Source of the DNA: an uncultured Lactobacillus sp.
Lineage (GTDB): Bacteria; Bacillota; Bacilli; Lactobacillales; Lactobacillaceae
DNA length: 64,000 nucleotides
Assembly: GCF_947367085.1 (NCBI RefSeq)
Contig: NZ_CANBCP010000005.1
Coordinates: 118-64,117 of the forward strand
Direction: 5' to 3'
The stretch's first letter is position 1, and every line of letters begins with the position of its first letter. Positions 670-17,158 of this stretch are shown in pieces. Below the pieces are notes generated by a model. The model was not told where the DNA came from, ran no database searches, and was given only the letters and a program-made list of their open reading frames with translations. A program made the translations under genes and the position numbers.

Positions 670-1491
670 ATGAAAAAATGGTTCAAATTTTTGACGGCAG
701 TCTTTGCTATCGCAGTAGTTTTGACACTTAGTGGATGCGCCCAAAATGCTCACAGAAATGTTTATCAAGAAACAAAAGCTGATAAAACAATCGTCTGGGG
801 CGTTAAGGCTGATACGCGTTTGTTTGGCTTAATGAGTATTAAGACTGGCAAGATTGAAGGCTTTGAAGTGGATTTAGCTAACGCCTTAACTAAGCAAATG
901 TATGGCAAAAACGCGAAGGCTGAATTTGTTCAAACAACGCCCAAAACAAGAATTCCGCTTTTAAAAAATGGCAACATTGACGCCATTTTGGCGACAATGA
1001 CGATTACGCCAGACCGTAAAAAGCAAGTCGATTTTACAACCCCATACTTCAACGCTGGCCAATCACTTTTAGTTCCTGATAATTCACCAATAAAAAATGT
1101 TAAGGATCTTAATGGCCGCACTGCTTTAGCTGTCAAGGGAACAACAGCAGTTGATAATGTGAAAAAATTTGCGCCTAAGGCTAAAGTTTTAGAATTTGAT
1201 GATTATGGACAAGCCTTCACCGCTCTAAAAGCAGGTCAAGGCCAAGCAATGACGACTGATAATGGCTTGCTTGCCGGAATTGCACGTGAAAATAAGGGCT
1301 TTAAGCTAGTTGGGGGTACTTATACTAGTGAACCTTATGGAATTGCCGTTAACAAAGGTCAAAGTCAGATGCGTGATCATTTAAACGCAGCTTTAAAACA
1401 ATTAAGAAAAGATGGTACATATCATCGCTTAATCGAAAAGTGGTTTGGCGGCATCGCAGGATTTGATATTAAGGAGGTTGAAAAGCAGTGA
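670..1491 (+). CDS. glnH: Amino acid ABC transporter substrate-binding lipoprotein (GlnH/Peb1A-like)
   Basis: Lipobox LSGC; SBP family 3 motifs (GFEVDL, RIPLLKNGNID, EPYGIAV). Confidence 0.88.
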   Translation: MKKWFKFLTAVFAIAVVLTLSGCAQNAHRNVYQETKADKTIVWGVKADTRLFGLMSIKTGKIEGFEVDLANALTKQMYGKNAKAEFVQTTPKTRIPLLKNGNIDAILATMTITPDRKKQVDFTTPYFNAGQSLLVPDNSPIKNVKDLNGRTALAVKGTTAVDNVKKFAPKAKVLEFDDYGQAFTALKAGQGQAMTTDNGLLAGIARENKGFKLVGGTYTSEPYGIAVNKGQSQMRDHLNAALKQLRKDGTYHRLIEKWFGGIAGFDIKEVEKQ

Positions 1492-2126
1492 TCAATATTT
1501 TGGTTAATCACTGGTCAGAGTTCTTGTCTGGCTTTTGGAACACGATTTTATGTAGTATTATCGCCTTATTTTTCAGCTTGATTTTGGGAGTAGGATTTGC
1601 ACTTTTAGAAGTTGCTCCAAATAAGTTTGCTCGCGTGATTGCCCACATTTATATCGAAATCTTCCGTAATATCCCTCTGTTAGTTATTACGATGATTTTT
1701 TATCTAGTGGTCCCACAGCTCTGGTTTAAAGTGTCTGGCTTTGCAGCCGGAACGATCGGATTAACGCTTTATACATCAGCTTTTATTGCTGAAACTGTAC
1801 GCAGCGGGATCAATTCGGTAGGACAAGGTCAAATGGAAGGTGCGCGTTCTAATGGGATGACTTATACTCAAGCAATGCGCTATGTCATCTTGCCGCAAGC
1901 TTTAAAGATTGTTATTCCACCACTTGGAAATCAATTCATTAACTTAATTAAGAACTCATCAGTTCTAGCCTTCGTAGCTGGCTTTGACTTGATGTATCAA
2001 GCCGATGTAATTGCTTTTTCATCGTTTGAGACAATTAATACTTATATGGCGGTTGGTTTATTTTACTTAGTATTGACTCTGCCACTTAGTTATTACATGC
2101 GTCATTTAGAAAAGAAATTAGCCTAG
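1488..2126 (+). CDS. glnM: Amino acid ABC transporter permease (GTG start)
   Basis: FRNIPLL and EAA motif (RSGINSVGQGQMEGARSNG); overlaps upstream stop. Confidence 0.85.
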   Translation: MINILVNHWSEFLSGFWNTILCSIIALFFSLILGVGFALLEVAPNKFARVIAHIYIEIFRNIPLLVITMIFYLVVPQLWFKVSGFAAGTIGLTLYTSAFIAETVRSGINSVGQGQMEGARSNGMTYTQAMRYVILPQALKIVIPPLGNQFINLIKNSSVLAFVAGFDLMYQADVIAFSSFETINTYMAVGLFYLVLTLPLSYYMRHLEKKLA

Positions 2127-12057: not shown

Positions 12058-13437
12058 ATGAAGGTTATATTTGTGACAGCTTCAGAAAAAGCCATCATCA
12101 AACAATGGAAGCCCCGTTATAAAAGAAATGTCTACCTATACTTGTGGATTTACGGCATTTTAGGAGCAGTAACGGGAATTACCAACGATGCGGCATTATC
12201 TTATTTTGATATTGTTGCACCGCATTTGATTTCAGGCTTAAATATTTTTAATGCGATCACGGCGTTACTGATGTCGCTGATGATCGTAACTGTGCATGAT
12301 TTTGGCTATCGGAAGATTTTGTTGGTTTTACCGCCATTGACGTCGATTTTTTTGTTTTTAACAACAGTTACGCAAAATCAAGTTATTATCATGCTTTCTT
12401 ATATTATCTCTTGGACAGCAATTGGCGTGTATGATTTGATGTATCCACTAATGTGGACGTCTTATGTACCTAAAGAAATTAGAACTAAGATGTTTACTGT
12501 GGTCATGGTCGTTAACTTAGTTTGTCAGACTATTTTGACTTTTGTTGGAGGTAAAGCAGTTGTGTGGTTGTTCAGTCTGCTGCAAGGCATCTCTTATGAT
12601 TCAGCTTCTGCACTTTCTGCCCACCCTCAAGCAATGCAAGGCATAATGTTGACCAACTATACTAATGCCTACCGCTGGGTGCTAATTGCCACAGCTATCT
12701 TCAATATGTTGGCATTCTTTTTGGCCTTCTTTATCAAAGATGAACCAAAAGATTACCGAACTGTCGACAAGAAAAAAGCGGAGACACCCGAAGAAAAAAG
12801 AGCTGCTTTTAAGGCTTTGATCAATAAAGATACCTTAATGTGGATCGCTTATATTGCAGGAATTCAGTTAGGAGCACGCTTAGTTGTTCCATATATTCCG
12901 ATTTATTTGAATGACTTTTTACATATTCCCCGGGGAATAACTTCTACTATCAATACCTTCCAAACCGCTGCGATGTTTATTGGGTACTTCTTTGCACCAT
13001 TCTTAGCTAAAAAACTAGGTGCGATCGTTTCTATAGCTGCAGGAACTTTAACTTGTGCTCCTTTAATGTTTATGATGGCTAACGGTCGTAATTTTGGAAC
13101 AGGAGTAACTTTATTTATCACGGTTGGCGTTTTGCTGTTTTTGAGATCAGGACTTGCCAATGCGACAATGCCGATTCAGCAAGAAGTGCAAATGGTGATT
13201 GTTGATAAGGATATGCGGCCAGCCTTTACTGCAGTAGTGCAGATTGCTTATGCTGCTATTGGGATAGTCGATGGCTTATTTACAGAATTTTACTTATTGA
13301 GAAAACCAATCGGTTATTCTTATGCTTACTATATTGCAACTGCTTTGTATATCATTGTAAGTATCATTTTATTAATTGTATTTACTAAAAAGTATAATTG
13401 GATTTTAGACGTGAAGAAGACTAAAGCTAAAGAATAA
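12058..13437 (+). CDS. MFS transporter, substrate unknown (start may be GTG 12073)
   Basis: About 12 hydrophobic segments with central charged loop; MFS-like loop motifs. Confidence 0.75.
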   Translation: MKVIFVTASEKAIIKQWKPRYKRNVYLYLWIYGILGAVTGITNDAALSYFDIVAPHLISGLNIFNAITALLMSLMIVTVHDFGYRKILLVLPPLTSIFLFLTTVTQNQVIIMLSYIISWTAIGVYDLMYPLMWTSYVPKEIRTKMFTVVMVVNLVCQTILTFVGGKAVVWLFSLLQGISYDSASALSAHPQAMQGIMLTNYTNAYRWVLIATAIFNMLAFFLAFFIKDEPKDYRTVDKKKAETPEEKRAAFKALINKDTLMWIAYIAGIQLGARLVVPYIPIYLNDFLHIPRGITSTINTFQTAAMFIGYFFAPFLAKKLGAIVSIAAGTLTCAPLMFMMANGRNFGTGVTLFITVGVLLFLRSGLANATMPIQQEVQMVIVDKDMRPAFTAVVQIAYAAIGIVDGLFTEFYLLRKPIGYSYAYYIATALYIIVSIILLIVFTKKYNWILDVKKTKAKE

Positions 13438-13439
13438 TT

Positions 13440-13465
13440 AAAAGCTCACTGAAAAGTGGGCTTTT
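13440..13465 (+). terminator. Terminator after MFS gene
   Basis: aagctcact gaaa agtgggctttt. Confidence 0.75.
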
Positions 13466-13545
13466 CTACGTGAAGTCAAGCATTACTAGGTGTTTAGCTT
13501 TATTAGTTTTACAGACTCCATATTATGATGGAATTGATTAATAGA

Positions 13546-13595
13546 AGCAACAGCTATCTTTTGAACCCCTTGGTTTGAGAAGATAGCTTTTTGCT
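13546..13595. terminator. Second long terminator-like hairpin with no obvious upstream gene
   Basis: agcaa-c-agctatctt...aagatagct-tt-ttgct inverted repeat. Confidence 0.55.
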
Positions 13596-13650
13596 TTCGT
13601 AATAGTTTACTAAGTAACAGTATTAAATTCATTTTATACCGAATGTATGT

Positions 13651-13679
13651 TTGATATACAAAAACCCTTCATATATAAT
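13651..13679 (+). promoter_or_regulatory. Sigma70-type promoter for abi locus
   Basis: TTGATA (13651-13656), 17 bp spacer, TATAAT (13674-13679). Confidence 0.7.
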
Positions 13680-13685
13680 AGTAAG

Positions 13686-13793
13686 TAATTAAATTGATAA
13701 ATAATTTGATTTTAGTGACGTATTACTTTAGACTATTTATAGAAAGATCAATCCCTTCGCTTAATGGATACGTCCTATCGCGAAGGTTTTTTT
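13686..13793 (+). ncRNA. Candidate abi leader RNA / RNA antitoxin ending in a terminator that sequesters the RBS
   Basis: Non-coding stretch between promoter and ATG 13794; CCTTCGC/GCGAAGG stem with inner GGA-UACG-UCC hairpin, followed by T7. Confidence 0.5.
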
Positions 13794-14834
13794 ATGCATA
13801 AATTTATGAAAGAACATCATATTCCGCTTAGATATACAGATCAATTAGCATTATTAAAATTGCGTGGTGTCACAGGAATATCACTATCTGTACATAAGAT
13901 TAAAGAAGAACCAAGAGAGAAATTACATAAACAATTAAAAACTATTAGTACTATTGGATATTATAATCTAAAAAATTATGCAGTTCCTTATTTTAATGGA
14001 ACACGGTATGAAAATTTATCATTTGATGGTTTAGTTGCTCGCTACTATCGTGACAAACATCTTAAACAGGCAGTACTGCATGCTGTTGAGGATATTGAGA
14101 CTACATTAAATACTAAGATTGCAAGCGTGTTAGGTAAAAAGTATGGTGCATTTGGATATTTAGACTTTAGATTGTGGTGCCAGAGAAATACAAAAAATAA
14201 GTTTTTACATGGAAAATATATGGATAAATTTGCTATCCAGAAAGAACAAACTAACTTTTTAGAAAATCTACAACGCAGTATAAGGAAGTCTGATTCAAGA
14301 GATGTACAATACTTTCTTGAAAATACGGAAAAAATATATCCACCTATTTGGCTAGTTATGAATGAATTGACATTAGGAACAACTATTCATTTGTATAAAC
14401 TAATGAATAAAAGTAATCAACGTATGATTTCAGACTATTTCAATTGTAAAACAGATGAGTTGGTGAGCTGGTTGGAAAGCATCAATTTGATTAGAAATAT
14501 ATGTTGTCATAATGGAATATTGGCTGACTTCAAGCTTAAAACAAAAGCTAAAGTACCTGTAGAATATAAACATGATAAAGAGACGGGGGACATTTTGGTT
14601 AAGTTGAAATCAGGGACTTATACCAACCGCTTGGCTTTACAGCTTTGTATAATTGTTAAGCTTATGTCTAAGATTAACAATAATTATGCTTATAAAGATT
14701 TAAAAATTTCTGTAAATAAATTGTTAGATGATTGTACGAAGCCATCTTATTATGGCTTTTGTGATAAAGAAGCGATAAGAAAATTATTTAGAAAAAAGAC
14801 TAAGCCAAATGATTATGTACTGATTGAATACTGA
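13794..14834 (+). CDS. Abi family protein (Abi_2 / AbiD-AbiF-like HEPN RNase); ORF-track start 13764 lies inside the leader hairpin
   Basis: N-terminal PLRYTDQLALLKLRG, IGYYNL, PIWLVMNELTLG, and HEPN RxxxxH motif RNICCH. Confidence 0.8.
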   Translation: MHKFMKEHHIPLRYTDQLALLKLRGVTGISLSVHKIKEEPREKLHKQLKTISTIGYYNLKNYAVPYFNGTRYENLSFDGLVARYYRDKHLKQAVLHAVEDIETTLNTKIASVLGKKYGAFGYLDFRLWCQRNTKNKFLHGKYMDKFAIQKEQTNFLENLQRSIRKSDSRDVQYFLENTEKIYPPIWLVMNELTLGTTIHLYKLMNKSNQRMISDYFNCKTDELVSWLESINLIRNICCHNGILADFKLKTKAKVPVEYKHDKETGDILVKLKSGTYTNRLALQLCIIVKLMSKINNNYAYKDLKISVNKLLDDCTKPSYYGFCDKEAIRKLFRKKTKPNDYVLIEY

Positions 14835-14868
14835 AATGTATATCTATTTTAATCTAGAGGTAAATGAG

Positions 14869-14978
14869 ATGACAAAACAGCTTATTGTTATGGGGAATGG
14901 CTTTGACCTTCAACGTGGACCAATGGACTAAGATCTCTTTATATAGGCTTTTTGAGTGATAAAATTAACCTATCATAG
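14869..14978 (+). pseudogene. Remnant of AbiH-family (SIR2-like) gene
   Basis: AGAGG RBS plus ATG gives MTKQLIVMGNGFDLQRG; after an 8-nt frameshift continues GLRSLYIGF, in register with the AbiH GNGFDL.hGL.tsY..F motif. Confidence 0.65.
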
Positions 14979-14996
14979 ATAAAAGGAAATGATCGA

Positions 14997-15848
14997 GTGA
15001 AAACTGGCTTAATTTTTGAAGGTGGCGCCATGCGTGGTTTATTTAGCGCGGGTGTCCAGGATGTCTTATTAGAAAATAAAATCAAATTCGATGGTGCAAT
15101 TGGCGTTTCTGCTGGAGCTGCCTTTGGGGTGAATTACAAGTCTCATCAAGTGGCAAGAGTATTAAGATATAATGTTCGCTATGCACGAGATCCACGACTA
15201 GCAAGTTGGCAGTCATGGCTGAAGACCGGTGATTTATATGGTACGGATTTTTGTTATCGAGAATTGCCTGAAGAATTGGATGTTTTCGATGCTCAAACTT
15301 TTGAACATGATCCGATGGAATTTTGGTGTGTAGCGACTGATGTTGAAACAGGTCAGCCGGTTTATCATAAGCTAGTAAAGGGGCAGACAGCTGATTTACA
15401 ATGGATTAGAGCCTCATCATCGATTCCAGTTTTTGCGCGGCCCGTCAAAATTGGTAATCGCTATTATTGGGATGGTGGAGTTAGTGACTCTATTCCACTC
15501 GATTTTTTTGAAAAACGTGGTTATGATCGTAATGTAGTAGTACTGACGCAGCCTAAAAGTTATCGTAAGGTTAACAAACATACTTATCCGATTTTAAAGT
15601 TGATTTTGCATAAATATCCGCAAGTATTAAAGAGATTAAAGACCAGAGCAGACGACTATAATGCTGTTTTAGACAAAATTGCAAGACAGCAAGAAGCTAG
15701 TAAATTATTTGTCGTCCAGCCGCCACAAGCTTTAAGAATTGGGACGATGGAAAAAGATCCAGCCCAGTTAAAGCGGGTATATGAAATTGGCAGACGGACA
15801 ATGATTAAACAATTGCCAGCATTAAAAAAATATTTGGGACAATCATGA
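14997..15848 (+). CDS. Patatin-like phospholipase (GTG start)
   Basis: EGGAMRG, GVSAG nucleophile elbow, DGG motif. Confidence 0.88.
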   Translation: MKTGLIFEGGAMRGLFSAGVQDVLLENKIKFDGAIGVSAGAAFGVNYKSHQVARVLRYNVRYARDPRLASWQSWLKTGDLYGTDFCYRELPEELDVFDAQTFEHDPMEFWCVATDVETGQPVYHKLVKGQTADLQWIRASSSIPVFARPVKIGNRYYWDGGVSDSIPLDFFEKRGYDRNVVVLTQPKSYRKVNKHTYPILKLILHKYPQVLKRLKTRADDYNAVLDKIARQQEASKLFVVQPPQALRIGTMEKDPAQLKRVYEIGRRTMIKQLPALKKYLGQS

Positions 15849-17158
15849 AACAAGAATCACTTTTTACAAATAAAAATAATGAACCTTTGGCTAGCCGGAT
15901 GCGCCCACAAAGCTTAGATGAAATTGTTGGACAAAGTCATTTACTAGGAAAAGGTAAGATCTTACGTCAGATGATTGATCAAGATCAAGTCCCTTCGATG
16001 ATTTTATGGGGACCGCCTGGCGTAGGTAAGACAACACTAGCGCGTGTAATTGCCGAGCATACAAAGGCAGATTTTATTTCTTTTTCTGCAGTTACTAGTT
16101 CTATCAAAGATATCAAAAAAGTAATGGCTGATGCCGAAAAGAACGCAGATTTGGGACAAAAAACGATTGTCTTTGTTGATGAAATCCATCGCTTTAATAA
16201 GGCTCAACAAGACGCATTTTTACCTTTTGTAGAAAATGGATCGATCATTTTAATTGGGGCAACAACTGAAAATCCTTCATTTGAAGTTAATTCTGCATTA
16301 TTATCGCGCTGTCGAGTCTTTATGTTAAAGCAGCTGAGCGAGCAAGAGATATCGCAAATGCTTAAGCGAGCCTTAGAAAATGGATTTGATCAAAAATTGC
16401 AGCTTGATGATAAAATTTTACGTCAAATTGCTATTTTTGCTGATGGCGATGCACGCAGCGCACTGAATACGTTAGAGATGATTGTTGAAAACAGCAATAT
16501 CACTGATGAGGGTCAAGTAGAAACTGATGGTGATTTACTAGGTCAAATTTTAGGCGGTAAGACTCTTAAATACGATAAAAATGGTGAAGATCATTATAAT
16601 GTCATTTCTGCGCTGCACAAGTCAATGAGAAATAGCGACGTTAATAGCGCTATTTATTGGTTGACTCGGATGTTAGAAGGTGGAGAAGATCCGCTTTATA
16701 TTGCCAGAAGATGTGTAAGATTTGCCAGCGAAGATGTGGGATTAGCTGATATGAACGCATTGAATCTGGCGATCAATGTGTATCAGGCGTGTCAGTTTTT
16801 AGGGATGCCGGAATGCAATGTGCATTTGACTGAACTAGTGATTTATTTATCATTAGCGCCAAAATCAAATGCCGTTTATATGGCTACCCAAAATGTTGCT
16901 AAAGATGTTAAGAATACGCTGAATCAGCCAGTACCCTTGCAAATTAGAAATGGCGTCACCAAGCTAATGAAGCAAGAAGGCTATGGCAAAGATTATCAGT
17001 ATGCTCATGATAGTAAGGATAAAATCACTTCGATGCAGACGATGCCAGATAATTTGGTGGGTCATGAATATTATTTTCCTACTGAACAAGGGCACGAAAT
17101 TCGCTTTAAGCAGCGCTTAGAACAGATTCAGAAATGGCACCAAGAACATGATGAATAA
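15845..17158 (+). CDS. rarA: Replication-associated recombination protein A (AAA+ ATPase, MgsA/RarA)
   Basis: PLASRMRP, GPPGVGKTT, FVDEIHRFNKAQQD, GATTENP, SALHKSMR, ASEDVG. Confidence 0.95.
   Translation: MKQESLFTNKNNEPLASRMRPQSLDEIVGQSHLLGKGKILRQMIDQDQVPSMILWGPPGVGKTTLARVIAEHTKADFISFSAVTSSIKDIKKVMADAEKNADLGQKTIVFVDEIHRFNKAQQDAFLPFVENGSIILIGATTENPSFEVNSALLSRCRVFMLKQLSEQEISQMLKRALENGFDQKLQLDDKILRQIAIFADGDARSALNTLEMIVENSNITDEGQVETDGDLLGQILGGKTLKYDKNGEDHYNVISALHKSMRNSDVNSAIYWLTRMLEGGEDPLYIARRCVRFASEDVGLADMNALNLAINVYQACQFLGMPECNVHLTELVIYLSLAPKSNAVYMATQNVAKDVKNTLNQPVPLQIRNGVTKLMKQEGYGKDYQYAHDSKDKITSMQTMPDNLVGHEYYFPTEQGHEIRFKQRLEQIQKWHQEHDE

Follow-up and report, generated by a model that had tools for sequence, protein, structure and literature searches.

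Abortive-infection proteins of the AbiD/F group are known from several systems in which the gene lies directly behind a short terminated RNA. In the lactococcal abiD1 system, a terminator immediately ahead of the gene ends a 50-b transcript, which is accompanied by rare read-through (PMC2661086). The lactococcal abiF and abiD-like genes confer resistance only together with their upstream promoter-terminator segment (PMC11381338), and AbiD1, like AbiF, needs such a segment (PMC11381338, PMC2661086). In a 2026 review, each of the four lactococcal AbiD/F systems is regarded as a protein with an RNA partner (PMC13064643). In Clostridioides difficile prophage phi027/phiC2, the RNA RCd22 neutralises the toxin AbiFCd in cis as well as in trans and is co-purified with it (PMC12373285), and the structure of a further family member, PbAbiF, has been solved with its non-coding RNA (ncRNA) (PDB code 8vz6; PMC12737573). 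Here we analyse a locus of this type in an uncultured Lactobacillus sp. It lies at positions 13651–14834 of a stretch of 64,000 nucleotides of contig NZ_CANBCP010000005.1, which we call the window, and it comprises a leader RNA followed by a gene of the Abi_2 family with a HEPN ribonuclease (RNase) motif.

An earlier reading of the window, made from its letters alone (the sequence-only reading), had proposed that this gene encodes a HEPN Abi_2 toxin and that the terminated ncRNA ahead of it is a candidate antitoxin. The observation is real and its interpretation essentially right: the protein family, the fold, a conserved and covarying leader and the literature all support it, while the expected Rfam match, the RNA length of 105 nt and the details of the start codon had to be given up or revised. 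The precedent invoked at the time, an AbiF toxin neutralised by an adjacent ncRNA, is indeed published for AbiFCd (PMC12373285), so that the kind of system is already described. We consider that the locus is probably an abortive-infection module of the AbiD/AbiF family, of the protein-plus-RNA (type III toxin-antitoxin-like) kind. The evidence obtained here consists of the protein family, its motif and fold, the conservation and covariation of the leader, the position of the leader relative to the gene, and the insertion of the whole in a hotspot.

Anatomy of the leader, its promoters and the start codon

The conserved leader RNA is about 50 nt long and occupies positions 13741–13793 of the forward strand. 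It is composed of a 5′ tail, AGAAAGAUCAAUC, a 7-bp stem, a loop that contains GGAUACGUCC, and a run of seven U residues (U7). The stem and the U-run together form an intrinsic-terminator-like hairpin at 13754–13793 (forward strand), with arms CCTTCGC (13754–13760) and GCGAAGG (13780–13786) and with T7 at 13787–13793. Within the loop, the element GGA-UACG-UCC (13766–13775, forward strand) is the counterpart of the sequence CAGRUACGUYCUG found in the longer leaders described below. The hairpin, this inner element, the T7 and the ATG that abuts it at 13794 all lie where the sequence-only reading had located them. The 53 nt from 13741 to 13793 fold into this hairpin with an energy of −13.3 kcal/mol. 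A terminator scanner made no call on the hairpin, because its loop exceeds 8 nt. Pairing of the 5′ AUCC with the loop GGAU into a pseudoknot was considered as well, and was dropped as it is not conserved among the long-form leaders.

Two promoter-like sites precede the leader on the forward strand. The distal one, P1 (13651–13679), had been recognised before and was found again exactly as given, with TTGATA at 13651–13656, a 17-nt spacer and TATAAT at 13674–13679; transcription from it would yield a predicted RNA of about 105 nt. P1 agrees with the consensus at 11 of 12 positions and is the top-ranked promoter-like site between 13300 and 15100, a region in which the promoter scan returned 10 such sites against 10.9 expected, which is chance level. 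Among the compared loci its TATAAT is common, as judged by eye, only to two leader copies that have no gene behind them (L117 and L118), and the region flanking it is 52–59% identical to any compared locus, the level of the background.

The proximal promoter, P2 (13706–13734), was identified by positional homology. Its −35 box TTGATT (13706–13711), 17-nt spacer and −10 box TAGACT (13729–13734) align base for base with TTGATT-17-TAGAAT in L117 and in the nearest orthologous locus, L030 (Lactobacillus kalixensis DSM 16043, NZ_AZFM01000052.1), with TTGACT-17-TATAGT in L004 and with TTGACT-17-TAAATT in L031. P2 matches the consensus at 8 of 12 positions, which places it under the threshold of the promoter scanner, and it predicts a transcription start at about 13741–13743 and an RNA of about 50 nt. 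The alignments thus indicate that the conserved promoter is P2 and that the conserved RNA unit measures about 50 nt, the 105-nt form not being conserved beside gene-bearing homologues. The RNA length of about 105 nt that had been proposed is an extrapolation from the distal promoter, not an observation, and is replaced here by the unit of about 50 nt that starts from the proximal promoter; P1 may add a 105-nt isoform in the window strain.

The ATG at 13794 directly follows T7 and lies 7 nt past GAAGG (13782–13786), which sits within the 3′ arm of the hairpin. Inspection of the sequence confirmed that GAAGG is the sole Shine-Dalgarno (SD)-like sequence before the open reading frame (ORF). The ATG that abuts U7 is present in the window but absent from the three closest homologues, where the triplet after the U-run is ATA (L030 and L031) or GTT (L004) and where the ORF begins at the equivalent of the window ATG 13806. 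ATG 13794 may well serve as the start in the window strain, yet it is strain-specific. Whichever start is taken, none of the closest four loci has an SD outside the hairpin arm; more distant homologues carry an ordinary SD of the GGAG type downstream of the U-run. An in-frame ATG at 13764, which extends the ORF in the mechanical ORF list of the window, was rejected as a start codon, because L031 and L007 have ACG in its place and L004 has it out of frame. Translation from 13764 had been named beforehand as an observation that would refute the proposal, and the lack of conservation of this ATG removes the concern.

Conservation and covariation of the leader

Homologues were drawn from 400 genomes of the same family and from the GTDB species representatives. 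Nearly all Lactobacillales homologues share the same upstream layout, in which a −10 box is followed by about 8–15 nt, a GC-rich stem and a U-run, and the stretch of about 8–15 nt before the stem ends in R-A/G-U/C-C-A-A-U-C-C-C. The leaders occur in two forms. In the long form, the outer stem surrounds a small hairpin (CGC..GCG or CCAC..GUGG) that is followed by CAGRUACGUYCUG; it is found in many Lactobacillaceae, in Streptococcus prophages, in the lactococcal prophage TP712 and in Tetragenococcus. The short form is that of the window and of the loci L004, L030, L031, L007, L008, L036 and L038, and it lacks the first inner hairpin and keeps GGAUACGUCC.

A covariance model, R1, was built from 24 Lactobacillales leaders, the window’s among the seeds. 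It has a single match in the 64-kb window, at 13741–13793 (55.9 bits), directly upstream of the Abi_2 gene, and it matches one site upstream of the gene at at least 27 other Lactobacillales loci. Copies that were not among the seeds (L117, L118, L116 and L120) score 38–61 bits, and the leader of the AbiF-like gene of TP712 scores 47.8 bits. No R1 match was obtained upstream of the distant homologues, nor in phiC2.

Over its 50 nt, the window leader is 100% identical to that of L030 and 92% identical to those of L004 and L031, whereas the identity of the coding DNA is 71%, 67% and 67%, respectively, and falls to 52–55% farther upstream. The expectation that the leader should be conserved beside homologues is hence borne out at most Lactobacillales loci, and the leader is more strongly conserved than the gene.

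The stem covaries across homologous loci, a check that the sequence-only reading had itself proposed. Thirty curated leaders contain 20 distinct outer stems in which all pairs are canonical, whereas exchanging the 3′ arms among the sequences leaves 72% (maximum 81%); the stems of this set were chosen by folding, which is a bias toward pairing. RNAalifold applied to an unguided MAFFT alignment of nine short-form leaders returned the same two helices. In this alignment five of the seven outer-stem pairs are changed on both sides, and 87.8% of the cells pair, compared with 78.9% in column shuffles (none of 500 reached the observed value) and with 32–52% after sliding the partners. The three GGA/UCC pairs of the loop are invariant or nearly so. 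In the initial covariance-model alignment, A3, the outer stem was shifted out of register, only 53% of its cells being paired, and this alignment was not used as evidence.

Conservation of the loop UACGUCC and of the 5′ UCAAUC extends to homologues with about 30% protein identity. Since both exceed what a terminator needs, the comparison indicates that the leader is a conserved RNA element under selection, and more than a terminator. The RNA type follows the protein lineage. In the protein tree, the short-form leaders and their odd derivatives all fall into one clade (support 100/99), which is nested among long-form lineages, and the homologues whose leaders are of the type of the Rfam abiF motif (RF03085) form the outgroup. 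The short form is therefore derived.

Searches with R1 and BLAST also revealed copies of the leader that are not followed by an Abi_2 gene; several of these retain a promoter. In one of these (L116, G393:C33), two compensatory changes preserve the stem. In L117 (G430:C38) the leader is followed by ATG-TAA, with a DUF6731 gene 540 nt beyond, and L118 (G434:C34) is located about 350 nt upstream of a cas9 gene. L120 (G131) has an SD, an ATG and 17 codons, then a stop, and two identical copies (L124 and L127, both in G066) lie within prophage-like DNA. The long-form motif was found in six IMG/VR contigs, three of which (L128, L129 and L133) have no Abi gene in the stretch examined. The gene-less leaders may be what gene loss has left behind, or they may be independent RNAs that have their own function, such as decoys.

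The AbiD/F protein

The gene at 13794–14834 (forward strand) encodes an Abi_2/AbiD-F HEPN RNase of 346 aa when read from ATG 13794, or of 342 aa from ATG 13806, the start used by its relatives. The Pfam family Abi_2 (PF07751) matches with an E-value of 1.4e-38 and 133.5 bits, compared with a cutoff of 25.6 bits, and covers profile positions 2–182 of 184. The AbiD model of PADLOC matches at 8.7e-41. The HEPN RxxxxH motif, noticed at the outset as RNICCH, is present at residues 234–239 (R234-N-I-C-C-H239; 14493–14510, forward strand). Alignments A1 (17 sequences) and A4 (24 sequences) show no variation at its R, N, C and H, and the motif aligns with RNSCCH of PbAbiF.

A search by sequence returned 8vz6, annotated as ‘Abi family protein’, as the sole match in the PDB (5.8e-10). 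An AlphaFold2 model calculated with alignment A4 has a mean pLDDT of 90.4, and a Foldseek search with this model gave a sole significant match, to 8vz6_A, ‘PbAbiF dimer bound to ncRNA’ (E = 3.1e-11; TM = 0.68/0.78), the next match having an E-value of 0.98. The protein is apparently a full-length, intact member of the AbiD/F group with a predicted PbAbiF-like fold. Its best named relatives are found in L. kalixensis (74% protein identity) and in Lactobacillus sp. ESL0701 (66%).

The inserted cassette and its surroundings

The whole module is contained in a cassette of 1,486 bp at 13474–14959 (forward strand), which is flanked by the copies of a direct repeat of about 15 nt (GGGCTTTTCTACGTGA at 13458–13473 and AGGCTTTTTGAGTGA at 14945–14959) that derives from the terminator of an MFS gene. 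In G393, the closest relative searched, this site is empty: the sequences equivalent to 12700–13473 and 14947–15895 of the window are contiguous, and the end of the MFS gene (to 13473) runs straight into the region of a patatin gene (from 14947). The module is therefore a 1,486-bp insert. Other Lactobacillus species carry 4–20 kb of different DNA between these MFS and patatin genes. Such comparisons identify the interval as a variable hotspot, possibly one that is related to defence.

Downstream of the Abi_2 gene, the cassette holds a relic of an AbiH-like gene at 14869–14931 (forward strand), beginning MTKQLIVMGNGFDL. The ORF, MTKQLIVMGNGFDLQRGPMD, is similar to the GNGFD motif at the N terminus of AbiH, with a weak Pfam match (E = 0.11, profile positions 1–13), and ends after 20 codons. 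To judge from this resemblance, it looks like the remnant of a second Abi gene.

The cassette also contains a palindromic element of about 80 nt at 13532–13619 (−26 kcal/mol; z = −4.6). Copies that are 82–89% identical to it are dispersed over many Lactobacillus genomes, one further copy being located in the genome of the window (C104). The palindrome has no match among the Rfam families, and it looks like a dispersed repeat of the REP or MITE kind.

Proposed mechanism

From the known systems we infer the transcript ends, the efficiency of termination, the binding of RNA to protein, the toxicity, the trigger and the antiphage activity of this module. P2, assumed to be constitutive and possibly boosted in the window strain by the strong distal P1, would transcribe the leader of about 50 nt. 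Most transcripts would stop at the leader hairpin and U7 and so give rise to an abundant small RNA, and rare read-through would carry the mRNA of the HEPN RNase. Little toxin would be made from it, because the only SD-like sequence of the read-through mRNA would lie masked within the hairpin’s 3′ arm. If the module works like PbAbiF-AbiFr and AbiFCd-RCd22, the small RNA would bind the RNase dimer and cover the R-x4-H active site. Infection might then upset the balance between RNA and protein, or a phage might supply a trigger; in either case the RNase would be released and the cell arrested.

Evidence against the module and alternative explanations

Several observations weigh against an antitoxin function of the leader. 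The Rfam abiF motif, which the sequence-only reading had expected to be informative, is not found. RF03085 has no match at E ≤ 10 in 13400–15000, where the region search gave noise only, none in the whole genome and none in 18 Lactobacillales loci. The gathering score of the model is 37 bits, and the positive controls did score, with 37.6 bits in RCd22 of phiC2 and 37–41 bits upstream of Fibrobacter and Chloroflexi homologues; upstream of an Aeromonas homologue the score was 33.3 bits, below the gathering score. The RF03085 consensus, CCCGCC-A-AGC...GCU-CAAAUC-GGCGGG, comprises an outer stem of 6 bp, a bulged A, an inner stem of 3 bp and, on the 3′ side, a CAAAUC internal loop. Only the outer stem of this architecture is recognisable in the window leader, the loop of which holds GGAUACGUCC, and the leader does not belong to the family. 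The short form of the window thus lacks both the inner stem and the CAAAUC-type bulge. In the ncRNA of PbAbiF, bulge nucleotides block the active site (PMC12737573). As the window RNA has no such bulge, its mode of binding may differ from that of PbAbiF, or binding may be absent.

The long-form leaders, on their part, resemble RF03085 in outline. Their outer stem starts with CCC and is followed by a one-base bulge and an inner stem of 3–4 bp, and their 3′ internal loop begins with CA or CAG and is enlarged into a UACGU mini-hairpin. This likeness suggests a distant relationship and is a lead rather than a test. On the basis of these comparisons, the window leader is best described as a lineage-specific variant outside RF03085.

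Further adverse points come from relatives and from the locus itself. A clade of Companilactobacillus homologues (L011, L040, L041, L042 and L048; about 38% identity) lacks the leader hairpin and has only an SD (GAAGGTG) directly ahead of the gene, so that not every member of the family has the RNA partner. The genome of the window contains a second Abi_2/AbiD-like gene (G000:C7:5062-5559; L002, ORF 1201–2097, reverse strand; 298 aa; Pfam 7.3e-26), which is preceded by a plain promoter and an SD and has no leader with hairpin and U-run and no R1 or RF03085 match. The −10 box of P2, TAGACT, is weak. In L030, the reading frame stops after about 143 codons, which marks a pseudogene or an assembly error; the internal stop implies that such loci do decay. 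Finally, the stability of the hairpin is not significant by itself (z = −1.87; 12 of 200 shuffles are equally stable). Judged by thermodynamics alone, the leader hairpin is not beyond chance; judged by conservation, covariation and the covariance-model match, it is.

The main rival to an RNA antitoxin, which we regard as unlikely, is that the leader is an attenuator acting only in cis, through early termination and sequestration of the SD, with release at the level of translation as in abiD1 and with a short RNA that has no antitoxin activity. A hairpin and U7 directly ahead of the ORF, with GAAGG in the 3′ arm, are what such a device would look like. The regulation of abiD1 was indeed mapped to translation, its terminator being judged not to be the main control (PMC2661086), and a leader that has lost the bulge with which the abiF RNA blocks PbAbiF would fit as well. 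A terminator, however, needs just a stem and a U-run, and the retention of UACGUCC and of the 5′ UCAAUC tail down to 30% protein identity weakens this explanation, as do the gene-less copies, which retain a promoter and compensatory changes in the stem. Moreover, homologous proteins bind their own upstream RNA (PMC12373285; 8vz6). On another reading, the RNA would not inhibit the RNase but would be its required cofactor or sensor. It might serve as a scaffold, or resemble a guide that the protein processes, in line with the route proposed to lead from AbiF to Cas13; the complex would be the active form, and defence would fail when the RNA is missing. The failure of abiF cloned without its upstream segment to give antiphage activity (PMC11381338), the reported processing by PbAbiF of its own ncRNA (PMC12737573), and the way in which RNA type tracks protein lineage are all compatible with such a role. 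We nevertheless consider it very unlikely, since for AbiFCd the RNA reduces toxicity and HEPN mutants are non-toxic (PMC12373285), and since no spacer-like variable segment is visible in the leader, the loop of which is conserved.

It is very unlikely, in our estimate, that the locus is what remains of a module in decay within a defence hotspot, its conservation reflecting only recent horizontal transfer. The truncated AbiH-like relic in the same insert, the internal stop in the L. kalixensis orthologue and the existence of gene-less leaders are signs of decay in the surroundings and among relatives. Yet the window ORF is of full length, its catalytic motif is intact and its fold is predicted with confidence. 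The leader still is 92–100% identical where the coding sequence is down to 67–71% identity, which argues for selection on the leader and not for recent transfer.

A module of protein and neutralising RNA remains the preferred reading. It can be extended to a more far-reaching proposal, which we rate as distinctly unlikely: the Lactobacillales leader would be a separate class of AbiF-type antitoxin RNA outside the Rfam models, its minimal 50-nt form would inhibit or engage the RNase through the UACGUCC loop in spite of the missing inner stem and bulge, and the gene-less copies would be stand-alone decoy antitoxins that blunt AbiD/F toxins. If this were true, the gene-less leaders, which occur in prophage-like DNA, on viral contigs and near cas9, would be anti-addiction or phage anti-defence elements.

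Comparison with known systems

An AbiF or AbiD1 protein encoded behind an upstream terminated RNA, as a type III toxin-antitoxin-like phage defence, was known before, and the locus itself is ordinary in this respect. What is new is its corrected anatomy, a leader class that extends across the Lactobacillales and lies outside RF03085, the minimal short form, and the leaders without a gene. A large branch of the family, in Lactobacillaceae, Streptococcus prophages and a lactococcal prophage, uses a leader that is invisible to RF03085, the only curated model. Annotation pipelines therefore call orphan ‘Abi family proteins’ and miss both the RNA and its gene-less copies. The short form also offers a natural deletion series, in which the outer stem and the UACGUCC loop occur with or without the inner hairpin, for defining what the RNase needs of its RNA. 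These needs have a wider bearing, as AbiD/F systems have been proposed to be the ancestors of Cas13, the RNA partner having turned a toxin-antitoxin pair into an RNA-guided enzyme.

The general plan of the locus resembles that of ToxIN and AbiQ, where an RNA gene lies upstream of the gene of an RNase toxin, a terminator between the two sets the ratio of RNA to protein, and the outcome is abortive infection. The toxin fold of these systems is, however, unrelated, and their antitoxins, ToxI and antiQ, are tandem repeats that are processed by the toxin. The window has a single leader, with one R1 match in 64 kb, and thus no tandem-repeat antitoxin of the ToxIN, AbiQ, CptIN or TenpIN types; the published AbiF systems likewise have no repeat arrays.

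Among systems with a related protein, PbAbiF-AbiFr (8vz6; Zilberzwige-Tal et al. 2025) provided the sole significant structural match, and the R-x4-H motifs of the two proteins align. The window protein is 21% identical to PbAbiF, and the RNA from Prevotellaceae has the canonical abiF form, including the single-stranded bulge that blocks the active site and that the window RNA lacks. The AbiFCd-RCd22 pair of the C. difficile prophage (Saunier et al. 2025) follows a similar plan, in which a SigA-type promoter drives a terminated RNA of about 100 nt, read-through enters an Abi_2 HEPN gene and the RNA neutralises the toxin. The proteins share 26% identity. RCd22 carries two Rfam abiF motifs (37.6 and 19.5 bits) and a separate terminator, whereas in the window a single hairpin, which RF03085 does not match, is itself the terminator.

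The lactococcal proteins AbiD1, AbiF, AbiD and AbiD-like belong to the same Abi_2 HEPN family as the window protein. The leaders of the plasmid-borne abiD1, abiF and abiD were compared by their published descriptions, and an R1 score was obtained only for TP712; a tblastn search of the plasmid collection with the TP712 protein did not return the lactococcal AbiD/F plasmids. The window protein is only about 31–38% identical to its relatives from Lactococcus and Streptococcus. Its locus is chromosomal and situated in a Lactobacillus hotspot, its leader is of the short form without the inner hairpin, and its SD-like sequence is part of the terminator arm instead of following the U-run. The layout is nonetheless the same, with a promoter of its own, an RNA of about 50 nt that runs to a terminator before the gene, and read-through, as reported for the lactococcal systems (PMC2661086) and as read for the window from its sequence. 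In the lactococcal AbiD/F systems conservation is higher in the upstream segment than in the gene (PMC13064643), and the same holds for the locus described here.

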